Of a DNA stretch of 64,000 nt, positions 10,094-63,054 are shown one piece after another. Location: assembly GCA_013299115.1 (NCBI GenBank), contig JAAFKA010000014.1:64001-128000 (forward strand). Reading direction: 5' to 3'. Position 1 is the stretch's first letter. The number at the start of each line of letters is the position of its first letter. A program made the position numbers and the translations under genes. This stretch comes from Cytophagales bacterium (GTDB lineage: Bacteria; Bacteroidota; Bacteroidia; Cytophagales; Thermoflexibacteraceae). The notes under the pieces were generated by a model, which saw nothing but the letters and a program-made list of their open reading frames with translations, was not told the DNA's origin and searched no databases.

Positions 10094-10736
10094 ATGGAGT
10101 TTAACGATATTTTGTTGTATAGTACCCCAGAGGGTCAGGTAAAAATAGAAGTGATTTATGAAGGGGAAACCTTTTGGCTCAACCAAAAAAGAATGGCAGA
10201 GCTATTTGGCGTAACATTGCCTACCATAAATGAGCATTTGAAACATATTTATCAATCAAATGAATTGCAAGAATCTGCAACTATTCGGAAAATCCGAATA
10301 GTTCAATTGGAAGGTAAAAGAGAAGTAAGCAGAGAGGTTGATTTTTATAATCTTGATGCTATTATAGCTGTTGGCTACCGAGTGAATAGTAGAGAGGCTA
10401 CGAAATTTAGAATTTGGGCTACTAAAACCTTAAAAGAGTTTATAGTAAAAGGTTTTGTGCTTGATGATGAAAGATTGAAACAAGGTAAAAAATTTGGTGC
10501 TGACTATTTCGAGGAACTACTTGAAAGAATAAGAGAAATTAGGGCAAGTGAAAGACGTTTTTATCAAAAAATTACAGACATTTATTCAGAGTGTAGCATA
10601 GATTATGATAAAAATTCGCAAACAACTTTGCTATTTTTTAAAACTTGCAGAGGAAGTTTACAATCAATTTAGAGTGTTGCAAGACCAGACTTATTTGTCT
10701 GATTTCGACAAAGAAATTGCAAAAATTAAAAAATAA
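10094..10736 (+). pseudogene. RhuM-family virulence-associated protein gene, disrupted by internal deletion and frameshift
   Basis: The N-terminal 192 aa match the RhuM family and stop at 10672. A different frame at 10644-10736 encodes a RhuM-like C-terminus (AEEVYNQFRVLQDQTYLSDFDKEIAKIKK*). About 120 aa of central region are missing. Confidence 0.55.
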
Positions 10737-12719: not shown

Positions 12720-12733
12720 GTTTTTAGGTTAGA

Positions 12734-12914
12734 TACGTTGGCAATGGCTTAGGCAGCCCCGTCCAAACCTTGACAATCGTACCTAACCCAAATAGTTACA
12801 CTAAAAAATCATTTATCGGACACTTTGAAAGTGTCCGATAAATTAAATTTTCCAAATTCATTTAGGTACGATTGTCAAGGTCTGGACGGGGCTGCCTAAG
12901 TCATTGCCAACGTA
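12734..12914. repeat. Family A palindromic element: 53-bp inverted arms (tacgttggcaatgg...ccttgacaatcgtacctaa) enclosing a family C hairpin
   Basis: A near-perfect inverted repeat is seen directly. Related copies are at 17821-18040, 22768-22860, 52581-52615 (half) and 55149-55238. Confidence 0.8.
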
Positions 12915-12942
12915 CCTGAAAACTCACAACTAAATACCGAAA

Positions 12943-13624: not shown

Positions 13625-14137
13625 TTAATCCACCCCGTCTTTATTCTGCAAATAAGGTTTCCAATTATCGTCATTTGCACCTGCAAACTCACGCAAAAAT
13701 ACTACAAATGAAGGTTTAAAAGGCTTGTAAGGGAGTTTTAATCCCACAGCTTCAGGTGTAAAATCTCCTTTTCTGGCATTACATTTTTTGCAGGCTGTTA
13801 CTAGATTTGTCCACGAAGTTTTCCCACCCTTAGAACGAGGGATTACATGGTCGAGGGTTAAGTCGTGTTTTGCCCCACAATACACACATTTGTTGCCGTC
13901 ACGTTTAAAGATATTTTGCCTACTCAACATCACCCCTTTGTAGGGAATATTGACATAGCTCAACAAACGGATAACTGAAGGCATCACTAAAACTTGGCTT
14001 ACCGACCTCAAAAACTGATTCTCTACTTTGGTAAGCACCTCAGCTTTGTTTGTATAAACCAATAGAAAGGCTTTTGGCACGTTGCAAACGGTCAATGCCC
14101 GATAATCTGAATTGAGTACAAGTACTTTCCGTCCCAT
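13625..14137 (-). CDS. HNH endonuclease family protein
   Basis: 170 aa with the CVYCGAKHDLTLDHVIPRSKGG...CKKCNARKG HNH/zinc-finger motif. Confidence 0.8.
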   Translation of the reverse strand: MGRKVLVLNSDYRALTVCNVPKAFLLVYTNKAEVLTKVENQFLRSVSQVLVMPSVIRLLSYVNIPYKGVMLSRQNIFKRDGNKCVYCGAKHDLTLDHVIPRSKGGKTSWTNLVTACKKCNARKGDFTPEAVGLKLPYKPFKPSFVVFLREFAGANDDNWKPYLQNKDGVD

Positions 14138-17661: not shown

Positions 17662-17820
17662 AAAACAAAACTTTGGCAGTGGTCGATAGACCCTGCCAAT
17701 AGTTGCGTTTTTTTTAACCATCGGGGTCTATCGACCACTGCCGAGGTTAAAAAAAACAGGGCTGTATAGTCAATAGCTGTGATTTGTTGCACTTGTTTAT
17801 TGCAGACCTTTGTAAAAGTG

Positions 17821-18040
17821 TGTGCCTATACGTTGGCAATGGCTTTGTGTGCCTATTACGTTGGCAATGGTCGCAGACCTTGACAATCGTATAGGCACAC
17901 GTGTAGGGTACGATTGGCAAGGTGCAAAAGCACCATTGCCAACGTACTAACACAACAAATGTGCTTTCGGTTGCTCACAACCGAAAGTGTATTTGCGGGT
18001 TTGAGAACCCGCAAGCACGTGCTACCATTGCCAACGTACT
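17821..18040. repeat. Composite family A palindromic element (two left arms, internal hairpins, family B hairpin)
   Basis: The motifs tacgttggcaatgg (x2), ccttgacaatcgta, tacgattggcaagg, ccattgccaacgta (x2) and tgcgggtttgagaacccgca are all present. Confidence 0.7.
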
Positions 18041-21942: not shown

Positions 21943-22107
21943 CTGTAGCTGCGGGCTTTAGCCCGCAGGATATTGTAGCATGGGCTTTAGCCTGTGCCAA
22001 AAAAATTGCAATGCTACCAATATAAAGTCCCTATCGGGACAAAAAAATATGGTGTGCTTTATTGCTACCAATATAAAGTCCCTATCGGGACAAAAAATGT
22101 AAAGTTC

Positions 22108-22450
22108 TTGTGCCGTTAGGCACTACATATTGGTAGAAAATAAGGAACACACCAAAATTATGTGCCGTTAGGCACTACATATTGGTAGAAAATAAGGAAT
22201 ACACCAAAATTATGTGCCGTTAGGCACTTCATATTGGTAGAAAATAAGGAATACACCAAAATTATGTGCCGTTAGGCACTTCATATTGGTAGAAAATAAG
22301 GAATACACCAAAATTATGTGCCGTTAGGCACTTCATATTGGTAGAAAATAAGGAACACACCAAGATAATGTGCCGTTAGGCACTGCATATTGGTAGAAAA
22401 TAAGGAATACACCAAAATTATGTGCCGTTAGGCACTACATATTGGTAGTA
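22108..22450. repeat. Tandem array of about 7 copies of a 52-bp unit (gtgccgttaggcactacatattggtagaaaataaggaaYacaccaaaattat)
   Basis: The period of 52 was measured from successive tgccgttagg occurrences at 22111, 22163, 22215, 22267, 22319, 22371 and 22423. Each unit contains the hairpin gtgcc-gtta-ggcac. Confidence 0.85.
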
Positions 22451-22571: not shown

Positions 22572-22760
22572 ATGAAAAAATATTTGGTAATCATCGCCTT
22601 GCTCCTCCTTGTGTGGGAGGTGCAGGCACAAGGGTTAGACCCTGTTCCGCCACCCGAACCTGTAAATGGTGTGCCTGTTGATGGCGGAATTAGTGGGCTA
22701 ATAGCAGCAGGACTGGCTTATGGTGCAAAAAAACTGCACGATAGACGGAAAAGAATGTAA
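22572..22760 (+). CDS. Small ORF: signal peptide plus Pro-rich segment plus TM helix plus basic tail (sorting-signal-like mini-protein)
   Basis: 62 aa, MKKYLVIIALLLLVWEVQA / PVPPPEPVNGVPVDGG / ISGLIAAGLAYGA / KKLHDRRKRM. It sits in a repeat-rich intergenic region and is flanked by a D hairpin upstream and a family A palindrome downstream. Confidence 0.3.
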   Translation: MKKYLVIIALLLLVWEVQAQGLDPVPPPEPVNGVPVDGGISGLIAAGLAYGAKKLHDRRKRM

Positions 22761-22767
22761 GTTTTTT

Positions 22768-22860
22768 TACGTTGGCAATGGTGCATTTTCGCACCTTGAC
22801 AATCGTAAAAAAAAATTTTCTACGATTGTCAAGGTGCGAAAATGCACCATTGCCAACGTA
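22768..22860. repeat. Family A element: perfect 40-bp inverted repeat with an A/T loop
   Basis: tacgttggcaatggtgcattttcgcaccttgacaatcgta ... tacgattgtcaaggtgcgaaaatgcaccattgccaacgta. Confidence 0.85.
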
Positions 22861-23181
22861 GAAAACGGAGCTACCAATATAAAGTCCCTATCGGGACAAA
22901 GTTAAAGTTGTAACATTTGTGCCTTTAGGCACTACATATTGGTAGAAAACGGAAACGTATCACGTGATTTTGTGCCGTAGGTCAATTCCATTGCGGACTA
23001 TCTATTGGTAGCACTTTCGGTTTTGAGAAACCGAAAGCACAAAAAAACTAAGTACAGAAGTAAACAAAAACCGTAGGCTAAAGCCTACGATACATTCTAA
23101 CGAAAAAATAAGTGCAAGAGTAAAAAACTGCGGACTGAAGTCCGCAGCTACAGTATTTTCACATTTAAACTATATACTAAA

Positions 23182-38452: not shown

Positions 38453-38770
38453 ACGACACGAAAAATAGAAAGTTAGGAAGTCTGTTTTCTAAGCCACAAA
38501 TGTACGAAAAAAATTATGGTAAAATGCAAAACATTTTACCAAAGTGCTTTTTTGCGTGCTTTTAACAGTTTTGCAACTTGTTTTGACCTAAAAACAACTT
38601 AGTAACGTAAAATTTCTATCATTCAACTGGTTCGTATGAAAATGTGCAAAAAATAGGAAAGCTGCATTTTACGCAACCTTCCTATCCAAAATGAAAAACC
38701 TTTGCAAAGATGAATAATAAAAACAAAACAAACAAATAGAAGAGTATTTTTTTTGGAGAGAAAGTACAAT

Positions 38771-38949
38771 AGAGTTTATGAATAATTTTCGAGAGATGAG
38801 GCTGTCCGAAAAGGCAAAAAAATGAAAAAATTTAAAATATAACTACTTGATTATCAATTAGTTATATTTTGTAATATTCCAAAATTTTGCCTTTTCGGAC
38901 AGCCTCATCTTTTTTCAAACCTCATAACAAAAATTTATTCATAAACTCT
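38771..38949. mobile_element. Nested MITE: outer family F (TIR agagtttatgaataa) carrying an inner family E element (gatgaggctgtccgaaaagg ... ccttttcggacagcctcatc)
   Basis: Perfect 15-bp terminal inverted repeats. The inner element has its own 20-bp inverted termini and a palindromic core aatataactacttgattatcaattagttatatt. It abuts the glpD stop. Confidence 0.75.
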
Positions 38950-38959
38950 AATGAGTTGT

Positions 38960-40618: not shown

Positions 40619-40646
40619 GAAGGAAAATTTTTGGAGTTAAGGTATT

Positions 40647-40737
40647 AGAGTTTATGAATAATTTTCGAAAGATGTCATTTTTCAAAAAAATGACATCTTT
40701 TTTCAAACCTCATAACAAAAATTTATTCATAAACTCT
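40647..40737. mobile_element. Family F MITE copy (same TIRs, different palindromic interior aaagatgtcattttt...aaaaatgacatcttt)
   Basis: The 15-bp TIRs are identical to the 38771 copy and in the same orientation. It lies directly upstream of the glpD start. Confidence 0.75.
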
Positions 40738-40851
40738 ATTTTTTGTTAAAAATTTAATGCAAATATAAAACCTCTGCACCTTATTCGTTACTAACCCTAT
40801 GATTAGTTAGTATTTTTTTTATGAAAATAGGCATCAAATTTGATTTTCTCC

Positions 40852-50076: not shown

Positions 50077-52077
50077 ATGCCCATTTTTCTTTATTGTTCC
50101 CTTGCCCTGCCCTTGCTTTGCTTTGCAGGTTTGTTGGTAGGCGAAAAATATTTGCAAACTCCTGTTATTCAGCGTATTGTGGTGGTGGCAAGTCTGCTTA
50201 CCCTATGCTGTTGGTTGCCTGTGGCGGGCGAGGTTTTGCTAACAAAACAAGTGTGGCAACAACCTTTTGTTTGGTTTTCAGTAGGAGATTTTGCGGTGCA
50301 TGGCTTTTGGTTTATAGACCAATTCAATGCGTGGCTTTTGTTGATAACAGCTTTGGTTTTTACTTTGGTGTGTTTCTATGCAGCCTATACAATGCAAACC
50401 GAAAAGCACCTCAACCGTTTTTTTGCGTTTTTATTTCTTTTTGTGAGTGCCATGTACGGGCTGTTGCTTACCGATAATTTGCTGGTCATTTATGTTTGTT
50501 GGGAGTTGGTAGGCTTGTGTTCCTATTTGCTCATTGGTTTTTGGTACGAAAAACCTTTGGCTGTGCAAGCTGCAAAAAAAGCATTTTTGCTCAACAGAAT
50601 AGGAGATTTGGGCTTTTTGGCTGCTCTATCGGGCGTATGGGCTGCGTGCCACACGTGGAGTTTGCAAACCATAGCCCAGCACTTTCCCAACGCAGTTGCC
50701 CTGCCTTATTGGGAATTTATTTGTTTTGGGTTGGTGGTGGCTGCCTGTGCAAAATCTGCCCAATTTCCTTTTTCTACGTGGTTGCCCGATGCCATGCAAG
50801 CCCCTACGCCTGTGTCTGCCTTGTTGCACGCAGCTACTATGGTGGTGGCAGGGGCGTATTTGCTCATCAGAATTGAATTTCTATTACCCATTTCTTTGCA
50901 TCATTTGGTTTTAGGCATAGGTGCAATTTCGGCTCTTTGGGCTACTTGGTGTGCTTGTCACCAAACCGAAATGAAACGGATTTTGGCTTTCTCTACCATT
51001 TCGCAAATAGGTTTGGTCTTTGTAGCCTTAGGTTTGGGTGCAGTGCAGGCGGCTTGGTTTCATTTGCTTACTCACGCATTTTTTAAGGCAAACTTATTTT
51101 TAATAGTGGGTTGGTTGGTTACAAATACCAAACAAAATAATTTATCCGACTTCTCAAGGGTGTCGGATAAATATTTTTTTGTTCCTTATTGCTTATCGGC
51201 AGCAGCTTTAATTGGTGTGCCTCTTACTTCGGGTTTCTTGTCAAAAGAGCAAATTTTATTGGCATTGTTCGCAAAACTTGCTACTACACCTACATTTTAT
51301 TTGGGTTTCATAGCTTTTTTGGTGGTTTGTACCCTTGTTCTCACCACTTTTTACACCTTGCGACAATTTTTTTTGCTATTTGGTCAGGAAGTTTACCCCC
51401 ACAAGGCAGGCTCGATTGTTTCTTACCCCACCCCCCACTCCTCCTCTTCTGGGAGGGGAGAAAATCTACCCCTTTGGGGTAAAAATGACCTCGAAGAGGT
51501 CAAAAATTCCCCTCCCAGAAGGGGTGGGGCAGGGGGTGGGGTTGTTTTGGTAATCAATAGTTTAGCTATAGGCACGTTGTTTTTGCCTTTTTCTCTCAAT
51601 CCTTTGGCTGCTCCTTATTTTGTAACTACACCAATAATCACTACCACCTTGCAATTATTTACGTTGTTCATTTCACTTTTTTGCATTGGTTTAGGTTCTT
51701 GGCTTGCCTACCAAAATAGGAAACCTTCCAATCTAAAAAAGAAACTTTTGCTTTGGACAGTGCAGTGGACAAACTTCGACAACAAGTATATAGAAAAAAC
51801 AGCTACTCAACTACTTTTTTCTCCTCGTCTTGCCTTGTTCGAGCAGCAAATAGTCCACCGCTTAACAGATTCCGTAGCCATTGCGGGTATTGTGCAAGCC
51901 CATGTGTTGGCGTGGGCAGACCGTCAGTTGTTAGACGGCGTGGTGCGTGGCGTGGTCTTGTTGTTAGGCAAAATAGCAACCAGCATAAGAAGTTTGCAAA
52001 ACGGCAACCTCCAACAGTCCATTGCTTGGGCTTTAGTGGGATTAATTTTATTAGGGACTGGGTTATTTTTTTTATAA
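50077..52077 (+). CDS. NuoL/ND5/MrpA-family proton-pumping subunit homologue, standalone, with two in-frame palindromic-element insertions
   Basis: 666 aa. The N-terminal 300 aa match NuoL (MYGLLLTDNLLVIYVCWELVGLCSYLLIGFWY, HAFFKANLFL). The conserved HHEQDIRKMGGL region is replaced by sequence encoded by a family C hairpin (51141-51171). A G/C-rich ~120-bp palindrome (51425-51545) adds about 40 codons. Confidence 0.65.
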   Translation: MPIFLYCSLALPLLCFAGLLVGEKYLQTPVIQRIVVVASLLTLCCWLPVAGEVLLTKQVWQQPFVWFSVGDFAVHGFWFIDQFNAWLLLITALVFTLVCFYAAYTMQTEKHLNRFFAFLFLFVSAMYGLLLTDNLLVIYVCWELVGLCSYLLIGFWYEKPLAVQAAKKAFLLNRIGDLGFLAALSGVWAACHTWSLQTIAQHFPNAVALPYWEFICFGLVVAACAKSAQFPFSTWLPDAMQAPTPVSALLHAATMVVAGAYLLIRIEFLLPISLHHLVLGIGAISALWATWCACHQTEMKRILAFSTISQIGLVFVALGLGAVQAAWFHLLTHAFFKANLFLIVGWLVTNTKQNNLSDFSRVSDKYFFVPYCLSAAALIGVPLTSGFLSKEQILLALFAKLATTPTFYLGFIAFLVVCTLVLTTFYTLRQFFLLFGQEVYPHKAGSIVSYPTPHSSSSGRGENLPLWGKNDLEEVKNSPPRRGGAGGGVVLVINSLAIGTLFLPFSLNPLAAPYFVTTPIITTTLQLFTLFISLFCIGLGSWLAYQNRKPSNLKKKLLLWTVQWTNFDNKYIEKTATQLLFSPRLALFEQQIVHRLTDSVAIAGIVQAHVLAWADRQLLDGVVRGVVLLLGKIATSIRSLQNGNLQQSIAWALVGLILLGTGLFFL

Positions 52078-52101: not shown

Positions 52102-52551
52102 TTATTTCTTCCTTTTCATTTCTTGCAACACCTCGCCTATTAATTGACTTTCGTAGCCTTTACTTAGCAAAAATTGGTAAATTTTCTGGCTATTGGTTTC
52201 CGTTTCGGCTTTTTTGGATGCTAACTGCATCAAGGTTTCATAATACAATTCATCGTTTATTTCAGCTAAGGCTTTGCGGATACAAGTTTCTGGAACTTCT
52301 TTTTGCTGCAATTCATAGCGAATTTTCAACTTGCCCCACTGTTTTACCCTAAATTTTCCTCCCGCAAAGGCAATGGCAAATCGTTGTTCGTTCAAAAAAT
52401 TTTCCTCTATCAATTTGGCTATGACCTCCTCTCTTTCATCTGCGGTCAGCTCGAAGGTTTGCAATTTTTCCCTTACTTCTGCATGGCATCTTTCTTGATA
52501 AGCACAAAAAGAAGCTAATTTTACGTAGGCTTGTTGAATAGTGTAAATCAT
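52102..52551 (-). CDS. recX: Regulatory protein RecX
   Basis: YQERCHAEVREKL ... three-helix repeat pattern of RecX. The start is set at MIYTIQQ because the upstream part of the ORF is encoded by a family A repeat half (52581-52615). Confidence 0.7.
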   Translation of the reverse strand: MIYTIQQAYVKLASFCAYQERCHAEVREKLQTFELTADEREEVIAKLIEENFLNEQRFAIAFAGGKFRVKQWGKLKIRYELQQKEVPETCIRKALAEINDELYYETLMQLASKKAETETNSQKIYQFLLSKGYESQLIGEVLQEMKRKK

Positions 52552-52861
52552 TGGTAAGCTGTTTAGGTGGCTTATTTTTATACGATTGTCAAGGTCTGCG
52601 ACCATTGCCAACGTATAAAAATAATCAATAAAAATAAATGTAAGATTTTTAGGAAATTTTTATTTTTTTTTATTCCTTGCAACAGAAATTTTTGAGGTTT
52701 TACCACAATTATTTCTTTTCATAGCTGGTTGAAAGAACTTGGGGACGTAGTTTTGTCCCCAAGTATGCTATGGCTGTTTTTGTATGTTGGCAAGGGTTTG
52801 GGCAACCTTAGCTTATATTTTTTGTCATTCTTCGCTACACTCAGAATGACAAAATACACTT

Positions 52862-55148: not shown

Positions 55149-55238
55149 GTACGTTGGCAATGGCTTAGGTAGCCCCGTCAAGACCTTGACAATCGTACCA
55201 CTATACGATTGTCAAGGTCTGCGACCATTGCCAACGTA
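55149..55238. repeat. Family A palindromic element
   Basis: tacgttggcaatggcttaggtagccccgtcaagaccttgacaatcgta ... tacgattgtcaaggtctgcgaccattgccaacgta. The right arm is identical to the 52581-52615 copy. Confidence 0.8.
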
Positions 55239-55284: not shown

Positions 55285-55950
55285 TTACTTCTCCTCTGCC
55301 ACCAAACTCACATTGACCTTTACCAATTTGCCTTTTTTGTCTTTTTCTACTTTGTCTATTTTATATTTATACAAAGAAGTTTCGGAAACCTCTACGCTGA
55401 TGTCTTTGTTTTTAGACTCTTCGGGCAATGTTTTTTTCACATTGCTATAATCAGCATAAAAAATCACGTTGGTATTTGCCCCTGTGATTTGGAAAGTACA
55501 AGGCTTGTTGTCTTGAATACCCATAAACTCTATGGCTACGTGGTCTTCTACTACGCCTCTGAACACAAAAGTAACCTTGTTGTTGTTCTTTTCCAAATCT
55601 GTTACGTTAAAACGGTTTTCGTGCATATTGGTACAGTTGGTTACAGTAACCTCAAAATAGTCTGCATTGGGATAAATCGGAATGGTTTTGGTAATGCTGC
55701 CTGTGGTAAATCGAGGAGTTTTGGATATGTCCACCTTAAATTCTTGGCTGGTGTTGAGCAAAATATCGCCATTTTTGTCGTAATAGCGGATAAATGCCAC
55801 ATGGTATTGCCTATCACTGTTGAGAATGGCAATGGTAACAGTGGCTACTCTGTCGGTTTCTTGGGGTTTTTCGTCTTGGGCGTTGGCTTGCGTGCTTACG
55901 CCAACCCAAAGGCAGAGGGCAACCCAAAGTGAAGTGAATAAATTTTTCAT
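55285..55950 (-). CDS. Hypothetical secreted protein
   Basis: 221 aa with a signal peptide. No recognisable domain. Confidence 0.5.
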   Translation of the reverse strand: MKNLFTSLWVALCLWVGVSTQANAQDEKPQETDRVATVTIAILNSDRQYHVAFIRYYDKNGDILLNTSQEFKVDISKTPRFTTGSITKTIPIYPNADYFEVTVTNCTNMHENRFNVTDLEKNNNKVTFVFRGVVEDHVAIEFMGIQDNKPCTFQITGANTNVIFYADYSNVKKTLPEESKNKDISVEVSETSLYKYKIDKVEKDKKGKLVKVNVSLVAEEK

Positions 55951-58086: not shown

Positions 58087-61000
58087 ATGCCCGATATTTT
58101 TATTTCTTACGGAAGAAAAGAGAGCAAAACCTTTGCCACCCGTCTGCACGACAGGCTGCTGGCAATGGGTTATGATGTATGGTTCGACCAAAACGACATT
58201 CCCTTAGCCGTAGATTTTCAGGAACAGATAGACGAGGGCATCCGCACCACGCCCAATTTTGTTTATATCATTTCGCCACACGCCATTATTTCGCCTTATT
58301 GTGCCAAAGAGTTGCAACTTGCCTACAAATATAGCAAAAGGATTATTCCTGTGATGCACGTGGACTCGGAGTACGACAGAATACCTGTGGTTATTCAAAA
58401 ACTGAATTGGATTTTGGCAAGGGAAAAAGCCGATTTTGCCCTACCACAAGCCGAATGGGAGGCAATAGACGACTTCGAAAAAGCCTTGCTGGGCTTGGTG
58501 GCTACGGTGGAAAGCCAAAAAGAATATGTTACCAAGCATACAGTTTTGTTGCAAAAAGCCTTAGAATGGGAGAAAAATAGAAAGCAAACAGCCTATTTGT
58601 TGGTGGGCGAAGAACGAAAAGATGCCGAAAAGTGGCTACTCACCAAAGATTTTTTCGATTATGTGCAAGACGATTTAGACAAGACCAAAACCAAAGAAGT
58701 GCGGGTTTTGCCACCTTGTCGTCCTTCGGATTTGCACGCTGAATTTGTGTGCGAAAGTCGCAAAAATGCCGAAAATTTGCTTTGCGATGTCTTTATTTCT
58801 CATGCTCAAACCGAAAAAGAATTACGCAATCAGATTGTGCGAACTTTGTCGCAATACAACATTACTTGTTGGAGTCCGCAAACCGACATCAAAACAGGGC
58901 AAGATTGGGACAAAAGTGTGGAGGAAAGCATAGAGCAAGCCGACAATTTTGTGTTTTTTATTACGCCTTACACTGTCAAAAACCAATTCTTTTTGCGGTG
59001 TTTGGCTCACGCCACTTTTTACCAAAAAAGAGTTATTCCTTTGTTGGTTTTGCCCACGCCTTTTGCCGATTTTCCAACAGAAATTAGCAAATTGACCTAC
59101 ATAGACATCACAGACAACCAAAGTACAGACGACTTGCGTGATGATTTGGATAGTTTATTGACCGAAGTAAACAAAGATTCTGTTTATTATTACCAACACA
59201 AGGTTTTGTTGGTGCAAGCCCTGAAATGGAAACGCCAAAACCAAAACCCAAGTATTTTGTTGCGAGGCTATAACTTGCAAACTGCCGAAGATTGGTTGAA
59301 ATTGGGCAACAAAAGAAACCAACACCGCCCACATGGTTTGCACGAGGAATATATCAATGAAAGCATAGCCAAAAGAGGGCAATTAGCCACCGAAGTTTTT
59401 ATTTCTTACTCACGCAACGATGGCGACCTTGCCCGCAAACTGAACAATGAATTGCAACTTTACGGCAAAACCACGTGGTTTGACCAAGAAAGTATAGTAG
59501 AAGGTGTAGATTTTGGCGATGAAATACGCAAAGGCATAGACAGTGCCGACAATTTTTTGTTTATCATTTCGCCCAAATCCATTGCCTCGCCTTATTGTGA
59601 TACGGAGGTGAGTCATGCAGTCAGGTCGGGCAAACGAATTATTACCGTATTGGCAGAGCCTTTGCCTGTTGCGGTGGCAGACGATTCTAACAAATTTCCT
59701 ATTTTGCACCCCGCTTTGGCAAGGGTGCAGTGGATTGACTTCAAAAAAAGTTTTTCTACGGGCATGGGGCAGCTGCTCCGCACCTTAGAAACCGACAGAG
59801 AATATGTGCAGCAGCATACCAAATGGGGCAAATCTGCAAACGAATGGTATGAAAAAGAAAAAAGTGCAGACTTGCTTTTGCGGGGCAACGAATATGCCTT
59901 AGCCGAAGCTTGGTTGAGCAAGGTGGCAGAGGCAGAGGAAAAAGGGCAAAAAAAACAACCTCACGTTACAGATTTACAGAAAGAGTACATAGCCGAAAGT
60001 CGCAAATTGATAGCAGCCGAAAGATTGGCAAAATTGCAAACCATTACCCGTTTGCGGTTCTTGTTAGGTATGGCAGCTTTGGGTTTATTGGTGGCGGTGG
60101 CAAGCACCATTTATGCTTTCAGGCAACGAAACGAAGCCCACAACAAAGCCGTTATTGCCGAAATCAATCAATTAGTTTCGTTGGCAAGACAAGTGCAAAA
60201 CGACAATCCTGCCTTAGCCTTGCGAATAGCCGAAAGAGCCTATAAAAAAGACTCTACGGCAAGTGTGCGGGGTGTGATACGTGATATTTTGAGTGATAAC
60301 ATTTTTTACCTCAACCTCGAAGGGCATGAAGGCAGTATTTTAAGCATTGCAGGTTCTCCCGATAGCAAACTCATAGCCACAGGTGGGCAAGACAATACGT
60401 TGCGACTTTGGAATCAATACGGCAAGGCTTTGCACACCCTCCAACTACACGAAAAACCTGTTACCAGCATAGAATTTGCCCACAATGGCAACTTTTTAGT
60501 TAGTGGTAGCGAAGATGGAACAGTGAAGTTTTGGGATACCGATGGCGTATTGTTTGGCAATATAGATTTGGGAGATGAGCAAAGAATATCCAATATCGAT
60601 GTTTCGCCCAACGATACGCAAATTTTGATTTGCACGCCTTTTGTGCAGGTGCAACCAGATACCATTAGGCTTTATAGTAGCAAAGGAGAATTGGTAAAAA
60701 ACATTGGCGGACACATCGGCGGCACGTGGAAAGCTATTTTTTCGCCTTCGGGCAAATATATTTTGACTTGTGGCTTGGCAGACAGCACCGCAAAGTTGCT
60801 CGACCACGAAGGCAATTTGTTGCGAACTATCAAAGGACACACAGGCATTGTGTTGGATATTGCTTTTTCGCCTGATGAAAATTATTTGGTTACAGCAGGG
60901 CAAGATTTTTTTGCAAAAGTATGGGACAGACGAAGTGGCAAAGAAATAAGCACCTTGCGAGGACACGCAGGCACTATTTTTTCGGTGGCTTTCTCTCCCG

Positions 61001-63054
61001 ATAACAAAAACATAGCCACGGCAAGTGCAGACAAAACTGCAAAAATCTGGAACTTAAAGGGAGAAGTCATCGAATCTTTTATGATTCACTCCAAAGTTGT
61101 TACTAGCCTTACTTTCTCCGCAAACGGCTACTACCTCTTTACAGCCAGCGAAGACGGCAAAGCTGCTTTGATAGATTTGAGAGGAAATGGCAAACAAACT
61201 TTCAAAGAAAATGGCGTAAACATAGAAGGAGCTTTGTTTTACCCAACGGCAAACGAAAGCTCTACCAAAGATTCTATTGGAAATTCTACTAAAAATATTG
61301 CCAATCAATCTACTTTTTTGGTTTCTTATTCGCCACTTTCAGGCTTGCATTGGTGGGATTCTACGGGCAAAGTTCACCAAAATCTCAATAACTTCGAAAC
61401 AGTTTCTTTGCTCAAATTGTCGCCTGATAAAAAAATGTTGCTCCTTTCCGATTTGCACAACCTTATCAAAATCACCGATTTGGAGGGGAAAATTATACAA
61501 AATTTGGAAATACCAGCCCAAGAAGCAAGTGCTATTAGTTCGGTAGTTTTTTCGCCTGATAGCAAATACGTGGCGGCGGCTAACTCCGAAAAAACCATAA
61601 GAATTTGGCAAACCAACGGCAAAGGGCTAAAATTCATACGTTTACAGGAAGACGATATGCTTTCTTGCATAGAATTTATGCCCGATGGCAAACATTTATT
61701 GATTGGAGGCTTAGACAATGTAATTCGGCTGATAGACCTCGATGGCAAGATAATTAAGCAATGGAAAGGACACGACGAAAGAATTTTATCTTTGGCAGTT
61801 TCGCCCAATGGTCGTTATTTTTTGAGTGGCAGCAGAGATGCTACGGTCAGGTTGTGGGCAGTCAATGGCGGTTTGGTCGAGTTGCTCAAAGGACACAGCA
61901 GCCCCATTACTTCGGTTGCTTTTTCCTCAAACGGCAAAAAAATATTGACAGCCTCAACGGACAACACCGCCCGAATTTGGGAGTTCAACGGACAGCAAAC
62001 TCAAGTTTTTAAGCATGATGACGTGGTAAATTCGGCTGTTTTTTCTCCCGATGACAAAACTGTTTTGACAGTGGCAAACAACGAGGCAAAACTTTGGTAT
62101 GCAGATTGGCGTGAGTTTTTGTCTGCCGACAGGGTAGCCAATTTTTCTTTGGCAGAATTAGCAAAAGCTGGGGTAGTGGTTGATTTTGAGGAGTTTAACG
62201 ACCAAGAAAATGCAAAAGATTTGGTGGACGCAGCCGAATATTACACAGGAGATTATGAAAGTAACGAAAAATTAGACGAAAAAATAAAGTCTAAACACGC
62301 CAAAACTTTGTTTCAAGAAGGATTGCGAATTTTGCTCGACACTGCCCAAACTAAAATAGAAGACCAAAATACGCAACTATTGAGCAGAGCCAAAATAGGT
62401 TTTGCAGAAGCCCAAGCCAAATTGGGTGAGCCTGTAAGTATGCAGCACTTCTTGAAGGCAAAAAATGCCGAAGAGGTTACGGCTTACATCAACTTTTTTG
62501 CCGTAAAACTCGAAAAAGCTACTTCCAAGCAAGACTCCGCCTTGCAAACCAACAACTTGAATGCAATGTATGAGGTGCTAATTAAAAAAACTGAAACCTC
62601 CGAAGACCTTTACAAATTTGCCCAGCAGTTTGAAAGACAGAGTGATGATGCCAACAACGCCGAAGCAGTGATGCGAAACGGAGAAATTGCGATTAAACTC
62701 TACGAAAAACTGTATGAAATGGACAAAGACGACAACACCCGACTCTCCGTAGCCAAACTCTGTACTTCGGTGGCGGGCTACAAACTCTTAGACAAAAACT
62801 TTATAGCAGCCCAGCAGTTTGCAGAAAGGGCTTTGACTTACGACAAAAGCAGGTTATTGGCTTACACTTATTTGGCTACTTCGTCCCTGTATTTGGGTCA
62901 ATTTGCAAGGGCAAAACAAATTTATTTGCAATACAAAGATACAACTTACAACGGTGCCTTGCTCAAAGAGGTTTTTCTAAACAGCATAGAGGCAATGACT
63001 GCCAAAGGTGTGGTTTTTTCAGATATAGAAAAGGCAAGGGAGTTGTTGAGGTAA
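58087..63054 (+). CDS. Multidomain protein: three tandem TIR domains, one TM helix, WD40 beta-propeller region (about 14 blades), C-terminal helical/TPR-like domain
   Basis: 1655 aa. TIR1 (DIFISYGRKES...SPYCAKEL). TIR2 (DVFISHAQTEKE...TPYTVKNQ). TIR3 (EVFISYSRNDGD...SPYCDTEV). TM LRFLLGMAALGLLVAVASTIYAF at about 60049-60120. Repeated GH/WD-like blades (LRLWN, VKFWD, AKVWD, AKIWN, IRIWQ, VRLWA, ARIWE). Confidence 0.8.
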   Translation: MPDIFISYGRKESKTFATRLHDRLLAMGYDVWFDQNDIPLAVDFQEQIDEGIRTTPNFVYIISPHAIISPYCAKELQLAYKYSKRIIPVMHVDSEYDRIPVVIQKLNWILAREKADFALPQAEWEAIDDFEKALLGLVATVESQKEYVTKHTVLLQKALEWEKNRKQTAYLLVGEERKDAEKWLLTKDFFDYVQDDLDKTKTKEVRVLPPCRPSDLHAEFVCESRKNAENLLCDVFISHAQTEKELRNQIVRTLSQYNITCWSPQTDIKTGQDWDKSVEESIEQADNFVFFITPYTVKNQFFLRCLAHATFYQKRVIPLLVLPTPFADFPTEISKLTYIDITDNQSTDDLRDDLDSLLTEVNKDSVYYYQHKVLLVQALKWKRQNQNPSILLRGYNLQTAEDWLKLGNKRNQHRPHGLHEEYINESIAKRGQLATEVFISYSRNDGDLARKLNNELQLYGKTTWFDQESIVEGVDFGDEIRKGIDSADNFLFIISPKSIASPYCDTEVSHAVRSGKRIITVLAEPLPVAVADDSNKFPILHPALARVQWIDFKKSFSTGMGQLLRTLETDREYVQQHTKWGKSANEWYEKEKSADLLLRGNEYALAEAWLSKVAEAEEKGQKKQPHVTDLQKEYIAESRKLIAAERLAKLQTITRLRFLLGMAALGLLVAVASTIYAFRQRNEAHNKAVIAEINQLVSLARQVQNDNPALALRIAERAYKKDSTASVRGVIRDILSDNIFYLNLEGHEGSILSIAGSPDSKLIATGGQDNTLRLWNQYGKALHTLQLHEKPVTSIEFAHNGNFLVSGSEDGTVKFWDTDGVLFGNIDLGDEQRISNIDVSPNDTQILICTPFVQVQPDTIRLYSSKGELVKNIGGHIGGTWKAIFSPSGKYILTCGLADSTAKLLDHEGNLLRTIKGHTGIVLDIAFSPDENYLVTAGQDFFAKVWDRRSGKEISTLRGHAGTIFSVAFSPDNKNIATASADKTAKIWNLKGEVIESFMIHSKVVTSLTFSANGYYLFTASEDGKAALIDLRGNGKQTFKENGVNIEGALFYPTANESSTKDSIGNSTKNIANQSTFLVSYSPLSGLHWWDSTGKVHQNLNNFETVSLLKLSPDKKMLLLSDLHNLIKITDLEGKIIQNLEIPAQEASAISSVVFSPDSKYVAAANSEKTIRIWQTNGKGLKFIRLQEDDMLSCIEFMPDGKHLLIGGLDNVIRLIDLDGKIIKQWKGHDERILSLAVSPNGRYFLSGSRDATVRLWAVNGGLVELLKGHSSPITSVAFSSNGKKILTASTDNTARIWEFNGQQTQVFKHDDVVNSAVFSPDDKTVLTVANNEAKLWYADWREFLSADRVANFSLAELAKAGVVVDFEEFNDQENAKDLVDAAEYYTGDYESNEKLDEKIKSKHAKTLFQEGLRILLDTAQTKIEDQNTQLLSRAKIGFAEAQAKLGEPVSMQHFLKAKNAEEVTAYINFFAVKLEKATSKQDSALQTNNLNAMYEVLIKKTETSEDLYKFAQQFERQSDDANNAEAVMRNGEIAIKLYEKLYEMDKDDNTRLSVAKLCTSVAGYKLLDKNFIAAQQFAERALTYDKSRLLAYTYLATSSLYLGQFARAKQIYLQYKDTTYNGALLKEVFLNSIEAMTAKGVVFSDIEKARELLR

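Follow-up and report, generated by a model that had tools for sequence, protein, structure and literature searches.

The window, that is, the whole 64-kb stretch of DNA analysed here, carries a dispersed repeat, designated family A, in all five places where an earlier note on this DNA had located it. The unit consists of a left box, TACGTTGGCAATGG, a middle of 7–25 nt and a right box, CCTTGACAATCGTA, for a total length of 35–53 nt. The left box has 13 matches in the window at up to two mismatches, against 0.44 expected, and the right box has 9, against 0.22 expected. Units were enumerated by a pattern census and with a covariance model built on 42 distinct units. Nine canonical units and one diverged copy were obtained, where chance would give fewer than one; the model retrieved exactly the nine units of the census and added the diverged copy (Table 1). 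No prior description of family A was found in the literature searched.

Table 1. Family A units, orphan boxes and the inserted hairpin in the window
Position	Strand	Feature	Score or basis
12734–12781	+	Unit, 48 nt, 20-nt apex CTTAGGCAGCCCCGTCCAAA; left arm of inverted pair	44.2 bits
12803–12851	not assigned	Unrelated hairpin ("family C") between the two units of the 12734 element	only terminator-like part here
12867–12914	−	Unit, 48 nt, left box with one mismatch; right arm of inverted pair	pattern and covariance model
17669–17704	+	Diverged unit, AACTTTGGCAGTGG-TCGATAGA-CCCTGCCAATAGTT	31.7 bits, E 5.6e-6
17829–17842	+	Orphan left box, outer bracket of composite	box match
17857–17891	+	Unit, 35 nt, apex TCGCAGA	57.3 bits
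17909–17946	−	Unit, 38 nt, apex TGCTTTTGCA, right box CCTTGCCAATCGTA	61.9 bits
18025–18038	−	Orphan left box, outer bracket, inverted relative to 17829–17842	box match
22768–22807	+	Unit, 40 nt, apex TGCATTTTCGCA	62.9 bits
22821–22860	−	Unit, identical to 22768–22807 but inverted, 13-nt spacer	pattern and covariance model
52581–52615	−	Single unit, 35 nt, apex TCGCAGA	pattern and covariance model
55150–55197	+	Unit, 48 nt, apex CTTAGGTAGCCCCGTCAAGA	pattern and covariance model
55204–55238	−	Unit, 35 nt, apex TCGCAGA	pattern and covariance model

The two inverted units of the 12734 element make up a long palindrome (12731–12917) whose arms, 12731–12786 and 12862–12917, measure 56 nt and are 95% complementary, not 53 bp as previously given. 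The region 12725–12925 as a whole folds with −77 kcal/mol (z −18). The central hairpin described for this element is indeed present between the units and is unrelated to them; a terminator scan calls it at 12811–12843. An intrinsic terminator was rejected for the unit itself, which has T-rich upstream and A-rich downstream flanks on both strands and received no call in the scan. The pair at 22768–22860 folds with −55.9 kcal/mol (z −17). Perfect 40-bp arms had been reported there, and the two 40-nt units are identical, but the full arms of the palindrome (22763–22865) are 50 nt long and 96% complementary. Its left unit begins 8 nt past the stop of a 62-aa ORF (22572–22760). The composite at 17821–18040, described earlier as having duplicated arms, does contain an inner unit pair with outer left boxes; the outer boxes, however, are orphans, and the two hairpins that complete the composite are unrelated to family A. 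The diverged unit nearby has a partial inverted partner at 17724–17748.

The single unit at 52581–52615 is flanked by 9-nt complementary sequences, TTATTTTTA and TAAAAATAA, the whole spanning 52572–52624. It lies approximately 30 nt upstream of the probable start of recX, likely an ATG near 52551, since the RecX domains begin at residue 28 and a methionine occurs at residue 21. The unit had been described as a half element overlapping the recX upstream region; the overlap with recX is an artefact of a mechanical, TTG-started ORF; such repeats can produce false ORF extensions, of which this is an example. The gene at 55285–55950 (− strand) has its stop 46 nt before the unit at 55204–55238.

Family A also occurs outside the window. 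When one genome per species was scanned, the exact unit turned up in at least 55 stretches; those listed all belong to three MAGs and hold at least 108 units. One MAG, JBIKRY01, is of a Bernardetiaceae bacterium from Lake Mendota; the other two, CANGYA01 and JAYTNF01, are of Cytophagales bacteria. The window represents a fourth species. Its gene DNA is ~76% identical to that of the MAGs and its gmk protein is 68–79% identical to those of the nearest relatives, yet the boxes are essentially invariant across the four species, whose gmk proteins share ~70% identity. Canonical units are missing from two relatives at a similar gmk distance (loci L064 and L066, 38 kb together); between convergent genes L066 carries a single diverged relative that is better paired. 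No copy was detected in the viral contigs searched. The same genomes also possess a small element that is clearly bounded by TIRs, TAGAGTTTATGAATAATT....

The window and the 55 matched loci listed yielded 117 units in 68 clusters at up to two mismatches per box. None of the clusters lies inside an ORF of at least 100 aa, though such ORFs cover 82% of the bases, and 57 of the 68 adjoin at least one gene 3' end, typically 5–50 nt beyond the stop. Units are oriented with the upstream gene in 47 cases and against it in 46 (14 and 14 for singletons alone). Adjacent units are most often in +− orientation (26 cases, 6–24 nt apart), followed by −+ (13) and tandem (11); the head-to-tail arrays have a period of 47–56 nt. 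The genes beside the clusters are unrelated housekeeping genes, with 70 Pfam families in 64 neighbour ORFs and no recurrent neighbour. An HNH endonuclease encoded in the window (13625–14137) was rejected as a partner and is treated as a coincidence because HNH does not occur among the neighbour families of other copies (25 of the 70 listed).

Each unit is predicted, by direct reading and by DNA folding, to form on its own a single imperfect hairpin, and the folding expected from the earlier note was borne out. From the bottom up, the stem opens with a foot of 4 bp, TACG/CGTA, followed by a bulged T in the 3' arm and by a 7-bp stretch, TTGGCAA/TTGACAA, whose centre is a G·A mismatch. A second bulged T, in the 5' arm, precedes GG/CC, above which lies an exchangeable apex comprising a stem extension and loop. 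The + strand folds as DNA with −8.0 kcal/mol (z −4.8) and its complement with −5.6 kcal/mol (z −2.4). In the alignment of units 99% of the cells pair, compared with 28–36% when the partner column is slid, and four pairs display changes in which both sides are altered. The foot is ACCG/CGGT in six CANGYA copies, which form a subfamily, and the apex pair C-G of TC..GA becomes G-C in TGC..GCA. These compensatory changes in foot and apex support the pairing of the stem. The irregularities are also conserved and have not been repaired: G8 is found in 113, A27 in 114, T12 in 110 and T31 in 102 of the 117 units. TA is present at both ends in 111.

The apex falls into discrete classes, namely TC-GAA-GA (50 copies), TC-GCA-GA, TGC-TTTT(C)-GCA, TCT-TTTT-AGA and a 20-nt class (CTTAGGCAGCCCCGTC..), with TC-GAA-GA or TC-GCA-GA the commonest. 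The dominant class depends on the genome: TCGAAGA in JBIKRY (32/61) and CANGYA (17/28), TGCTTTT(C)GCA in JAYTNF and TCGCAGA in the window. The middle had been described as self-complementary in some copies. In the short-middle classes the apex does prolong the stem and close with a loop, but the top of the 20-nt class pairs weakly (z −1.1). The more stable + strand bears C(GAA)G or C(GCA)G at the hairpin tip, and GNA triloops closed by C-G reportedly form unusually stable DNA mini-hairpins (work of Hirao, Yoshizawa and colleagues in the 1990s). The stable triloop tip is a hint, not proof, that folded single-stranded DNA is the relevant form of the unit.

Known structured RNA was rejected as an explanation. 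There were no Rfam matches at gathering score in the window, and permissive searches returned only sub-threshold matches to eukaryotic miRNA-precursor hairpin models on both strands, a mere reflection of a long hairpin. No Rfam family accounts for the copies. An outward promoter from the TTGACA of the right box was also rejected, as no suitably spaced −10 is present, and promoter-like sites in the scan were not in excess (33 against 29.7 expected).

The sequences on either side of a singleton complement each other and vary from locus to locus. Perfect runs average 4.4–5.8 nt, compared with 0.9 nt in shuffled pairings, and the complementarity reaches 15/15 nt. Examples are L007 1840, L034 6734, L047 7742, L027 2967 and the unit at 52581 in the window. 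For most singletons, the unit forms the exact centre of a palindrome peculiar to its locus. Doublets lack such complementarity between their outer flanks. Instead, they resolve as an aL-unit-aR module with a second module, X-unit-X', at the junction of the first (L012 4137–4252, L020 7406–7531 and L055 1605–1730). Direct repeats of 3–8 bp flank 1 of 34 singletons (4 bp, the chance level) and 0 of 31 doublets, and a TA duplication would be indistinguishable from the palindromic TA ends of family A. A/T-rich palindromes are common in these genomes, with 59 having stems of at least 9 bp in 436 kb outside units, and insertion at the centre of longer palindromes has been noted for some REP families (PMC3733652). 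Two explanations can be offered for the complementary flanks: units land in pre-existing A/T-rich palindromes, or insertion copies a flank in inverted orientation.

Occupancy differs at orthologous sites, in line with the check on insertion polymorphism proposed in the earlier note. At L019 (JBIKRY) one unit sits within the apex of a second, and the orthologous intergenic region of L031 (JAYTNF) has no unit. The unit of L010 sits exactly where L028 has a perfect hairpin of another repeat family, ATACTTTCCAAGTCT..AGACTTGGAAAGTAT, which occurs at five further loci. An identical 35-nt unit follows the gene at 55285–55950 and its L034 orthologue (window 55204, L034 6734). In the window a second unit stands beside it to form a pair and in L034 it is single, and the surrounding spacer DNA cannot be aligned. 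That two species share an identical unit behind orthologous genes may be due to selection for a host function and not to transposition. Some singletons resemble doublets that lack one unit (L054 compared with L055). Orphan boxes, decayed copies (17669–17748) and these deleted-looking doublets round off a picture in which units are gained, duplicated and left to decay. The orthologous-site comparisons, a metagenome scan with the metallophosphoesterase gene and gmk synteny yielded no precise empty site; the metagenome scan returned distant relatives only (identity ≤61%), and synteny around gmk is not conserved among relatives. It is the distribution of the copies that suggests mobility of family A.

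Taken together, we consider family A to be a REP-type hairpin repeat spread in trans by an enzyme specific for single-stranded hairpins, with a probability of about 0.68. It is best read as a new family of the REP/BIME class, in a clade for which little is known of these repeats. Like REPs, whose imperfect palindromes measure ~20–65 nt, it is a hairpin-forming palindrome with many dispersed copies, extragenic sites and inverted doublets or clusters. The REP/BIME part of the earlier REP/BIME/MITE-like proposal is supported by copies elsewhere, fold, extragenic position and occupancy, while the MITE part is disfavoured because direct target duplications of at least 3 bp are missing, singletons are only 35 nt long and tandem arrays occur. 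An enzyme working in trans would recognise both the sequence and the structure of the unit in folded single-stranded DNA. The leading candidate would be a RAYT-type HUH Y1 transposase, as in Bacteroidetes subclasses 2.6 and 2.4, although a RAYT specifically is a tentative assignment, at somewhat less than even odds. Such an enzyme would have copied units into intergenic DNA, favouring A/T-rich palindromic spots just beyond gene ends, and singletons, inverted pairs, tandem arrays and hairpin-in-hairpin nests would be the outcome. The lack of orientation bias, combined with a conserved asymmetric hairpin, fits recognition at the DNA level. Extrahelical bases and mismatches let Y1 enzymes and integron integrases distinguish the strands of a hairpin. 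A secondary host use, for example mRNA 3'-end protection, is plausible and would be compatible with the REP reading.

Three results argue against full REP membership. No unpaired GTAG/GTGG or CGTC tag precedes the hairpin in the aligned units, where the TACG foot is base-paired and the upstream sequence is variable. None of the REP types of the Bernardetia litoralis subclass 2.6 genes occurs in the family A loci. Lastly, the RAYT or IS200-like transposase that the earlier note proposed to look for did not emerge, as no Y1/RAYT or IS200-like ORF was detected in 523 kb (the window and ~460 kb of related loci). This search combined tblastn with E. coli RayT and Salmonella IS200 TnpA, whose sequences served as leads only, with a scan for the HUH...YxxNP motif. 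Pfam analysis of 30 window ORFs found no transposase, nor was one seen for the 64 ORFs beside units among the 25 of 70 families listed. The missing Y1 gene is weak evidence since RAYTs are usually single-copy and 523 kb is a small part of four genomes.

Characterised REP elements are recognised as folded single-stranded DNA by RAYT, an HUH Y1 transposase related to IS200/IS605 TnpA (PMC6006769). The REP/BIME/REPIN systems of E. coli and Pseudomonas (PMC6006769, PMC3116915, PMC3733652) resemble family A in being short, imperfect, dispersed extragenic palindromes that often lie just beyond gene ends and form inverted doublets folding into long hairpins. Both also form clusters and tandem arrays, have a dominant variant peculiar to each genome and persist for long in related species. 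Family A differs in that it lacks the unpaired 5' GTAG guide tetranucleotide, having a paired TACG foot, and has no RAYT in the DNA searched; it has a longer stem with a fixed mismatch and two bulges, and a modular apex of 7–25 nt.

RAYT subclass 2.6 (Bertels group 5) occurs chiefly in Bacteroidetes, where its genes are bordered by "atypical secondary structures" (Quentin et al. 2018, PMC6006769, Table S1); Flexibacter (Bernardetia) litoralis has three subclass 2.6 genes (PMC6006769). These structures share with family A the phylum and a non-canonical hairpin with internal irregularities. One subclass 2.6 REP, that of Planctomyces brasiliensis, alternates between GAA and GCA triloops on a short top stem (PMC6006769), as family A does. 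The "double-foot" REPs of subclass 2.4 start (5') with a tetranucleotide whose complement closes them at the 3' end (PMC6006769), a paired foot that is closer in form to the TACG...CGTA of family A. However, the subclass 2.6 and 2.4 REPs listed are unrelated to family A in sequence, and their foot is GT[AG]G rather than TACG. The CGTC REPs of Bacteroidetes are mostly head-to-head dimers with no dedicated transposase adjoining them (Di Nocera et al. 2013, PMC3733652). They match family A in phylum, inverted dimers and lack of a neighbouring transposase, and some of their families lie within longer palindromes. Family A does not have their stem of 8–9 bp, loop of 4–5 nt, unpaired CGTC tag and CCA-like tail (PMC3733652).

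A rather unlikely alternative is that family A is mainly a structure selected by the host, such as an mRNA 3'-end protector, a weak terminator or a protein-binding site, with little or no transposition today. Purifying selection would then keep the sequence, and the binder would be a nucleoid or regulatory protein. The position of most clusters just beyond a stop is consistent with such a role, as are boxes that are near-invariant in species ~24% diverged in coding DNA and the identical unit after orthologous genes in the window and L034. At the L010/L028 site another, perfect hairpin sits in the position of the unit, as if a hairpin were required, and the relative that lacks the family, L066, has one diverged, better-paired version between convergent genes. 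But neither strand has a T-tract after the hairpin, and the scan does not call the units terminator-like; the unit is asymmetric, yet shows no orientation bias relative to transcription; and stability alone would not select a conserved mismatch and bulges. Genome-specific dominant variants, tandem arrays, nested copies and orphan boxes also speak against a host structure, as does the absence of the family from equally close relatives. The half-sites had been suggested as possible protein-binding sites; the case for double-stranded binding there is weakened because the spacing of the boxes varies from 7 to 25 nt.

The complementary flanks raise a further possibility, which we consider unlikely: family A spread by a non-classical mechanism, not of the RAYT/GTAG kind. 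In one form, an enzyme picks the apex of pre-existing A/T-rich hairpins, which would explain why singletons occupy the centres of palindromes. In the other, insertion itself makes the inverted flank copy, for example by snap-back priming from the folded unit, which would equally explain the complementarity; we know of no description of inverted flank copying by insertion for bacterial repeats. If such a mechanism were true, the swappable apex and the conserved G·A mismatch and T bulges would be the recognition code of a new hairpin-specific enzyme.

It is improbable that family A consists of MITEs of a DDE transposon, for example of the TA-duplicating IS630/Tc1 type, with the 14-nt boxes as TIRs and a full-length mobilising element elsewhere. 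The TA ends would fit a TA target duplication around CG...CG, each box is an imperfect inverted repeat of the other, the inverted pairs of 90–180 bp are of MITE-like size, and another TIR-bounded small element exists in the same genomes. Bacterial MITEs such as Correia/NEMIS and the IS630-type elements with TA duplication are likewise small, non-coding and palindromic and carry TA at both ends. Against this, the TA ends belong to the palindrome and direct flank repeats of 3 bp or more are at the chance level, and no direct duplication extends beyond the TA; singleton flanks are complementary rather than direct. A 35-nt singleton is far below the usual size of a MITE, and head-to-tail arrays with an exchangeable apex are traits of REPs and BIMEs. 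No parent transposon was seen, and no transposase was seen beside the 68 clusters, among the Pfam matches listed, or in the scanned window ORFs.

attC sites combine a variable centre with conserved boxes at the ends and conserved extrahelical bases, and Neisseria DUS form inverted pairs beyond gene ends. Although family A recalls the former in all three features, including extrahelical bases that distinguish the folded strands, and the latter in its inverted pairs beyond gene ends, it is very improbable that it represents attC-like sites of an integron-type tyrosine recombinase or DNA-uptake sequences in inverted pairs, as direct reading finds no GTTRRRY/RYYYAAC core in the boxes, units of 35–53 nt are much shorter than attC, the neighbours are scattered housekeeping genes with no cassette arrays and no integrase nearby, and the boxes, unlike uptake sequences, never lie within genes.

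To our knowledge, work on REP/REPIN systems has been confined almost wholly to Proteobacteria. The literature consulted on Bacteroidetes records only the "atypical secondary structures" beside RAYT genes (PMC6006769). Family A provides a clean, information-rich example from Cytophagales, with two invariant 14-nt boxes, fixed irregularities and a swappable apex in at least four species. The invariance of a structured 14+14-nt code across genera and the palindromic embedding of the units are its noteworthy features, and they make the family useful for finding the cognate enzyme, for studying how hairpin repeats choose their targets at palindrome centres and for following persistence across genera. 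The repeats also break short-read assemblies of this organism: the recovered Logan contigs of the window genome stop a few hundred bases or less from the repeat-rich intergenic tract that lies upstream of 23182.

The variable middle (apex) of family A, a REP-like hairpin repeat with a left and a right box, consists in its 48-nt units of the 20-nt sequence CTTAGGCAGCCCCGTC (middles at window 12748-12767 and 55164-55183). This sequence is also found beyond family A units, for example near 795-815 in L007, a locus from a related genome (TTCGCTTAGGCAGCCCCGCCTAAAGGCGAA). Within family A units it occurs in both orientations, as in the middles TGCTTTTGTACGGGGCTGCCTAAG. Its presence outside the units and its use in either orientation within them suggest that this 20-nt sequence is a separate small module that entered the apex. 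A relative lacking canonical family A carries a single copy of a version that is diverged and better paired, and this copy may be an ancestral or a decayed form of family A.

Several more families of perfect palindromes are present besides family A in the MAGs that carry it: ATACTTTCCAAGTCT-N3-AGACTTGGAAAGTAT, AAACCTTACAAGGTTTT..., AGAACTAACATTTCT... and CCCCCTCTCCA..TGGAGAGGGGG. One of them holds a site orthologous to that of a family A unit. A further family, common to the same genomes as family A, consists of small MITE-like elements with inverted ends (TAGAGTTTATGAATAATT / AATTATTCATAAACTCTA) around an internal hairpin that differs from copy to copy.

The GC-rich palindrome in the NuoL-like ORF is read in frame (...YPTPHSSSSGRGENLPLWGKNDLEEVKNSPPRRGGAGGGVV...), and is therefore an in-frame intragenic palindromic insertion. 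Hairpins resembling it (CCCCTCCC/GGGAGGGG) were found in L002, L005 and L009.

The array of 52-nt period belongs to a repeat family other than family A. Its units comprise two small hairpins, of GTCCCGATAGGGAC and GTGCCGTTAGGCAC types, with ends CTACCAATAT, and related repeats (GTGCCGTAGGCAC) were found in L009 and L026. In the window the array lies between the gene for a DUF285/T9SS protein and a 62-aa ORF. The product of this ORF resembles a signal peptide joined with nothing in between to a sorting tail of PEP-CTERM-like make-up: a proline-rich motif, a hydrophobic stretch and a basic end. A family A pair begins 8 nt after the stop of the ORF.

Features in the window and at numbered loci (L) of related genomes
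Feature	Location	Description
Small element, TAGAGTTTATGAATAATT / AATTATTCATAAACTCTA	window 38767-38953, 40646-40738; L005 5317-5401, 7094-7177; L008 4478; L009 4420	
GC-rich palindrome	window 51425-51542	35-nt arms, 86% complementary; within NuoL-like ORF 50077-52077
52-nt array	window 22014-22352, 22871-22945	
62-aa ORF	window 22572-22760	MKKYLVIIALLLLVWEVQAQGLDPVPPPEPVNGVPVDGGISGLIAAGLAYGAKKLHDRRKRM
Diverged family A version	L066 16483-16519	TACGTTTGTTAAGG-CTTTATAAA-CCTTGACAAACGTA; between convergent genes
Perfect palindromes	L015 6636, L019 7487, L028 ~2500, L029 2866, L040 4559, L044 4073, other loci	
HNH endonuclease (HNH_5)	window 13625-14137 (-)	stand-alone, 170 aa; just downstream of gmk
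RhuM/Bro-N family protein	window 10094-10672	
TIR/WD40 protein	window 58087-63054	1655 aa; two TIR domains, WD40 repeats

The HNH endonuclease gene lies about 700 nt from the family A element at 12734-12914. Because no HNH gene was found beside other family A copies among the 25 neighbour families listed, it is probably unrelated to family A. The TIR/WD40 and RhuM/Bro-N genes are possibly related to defence or to mobile elements.
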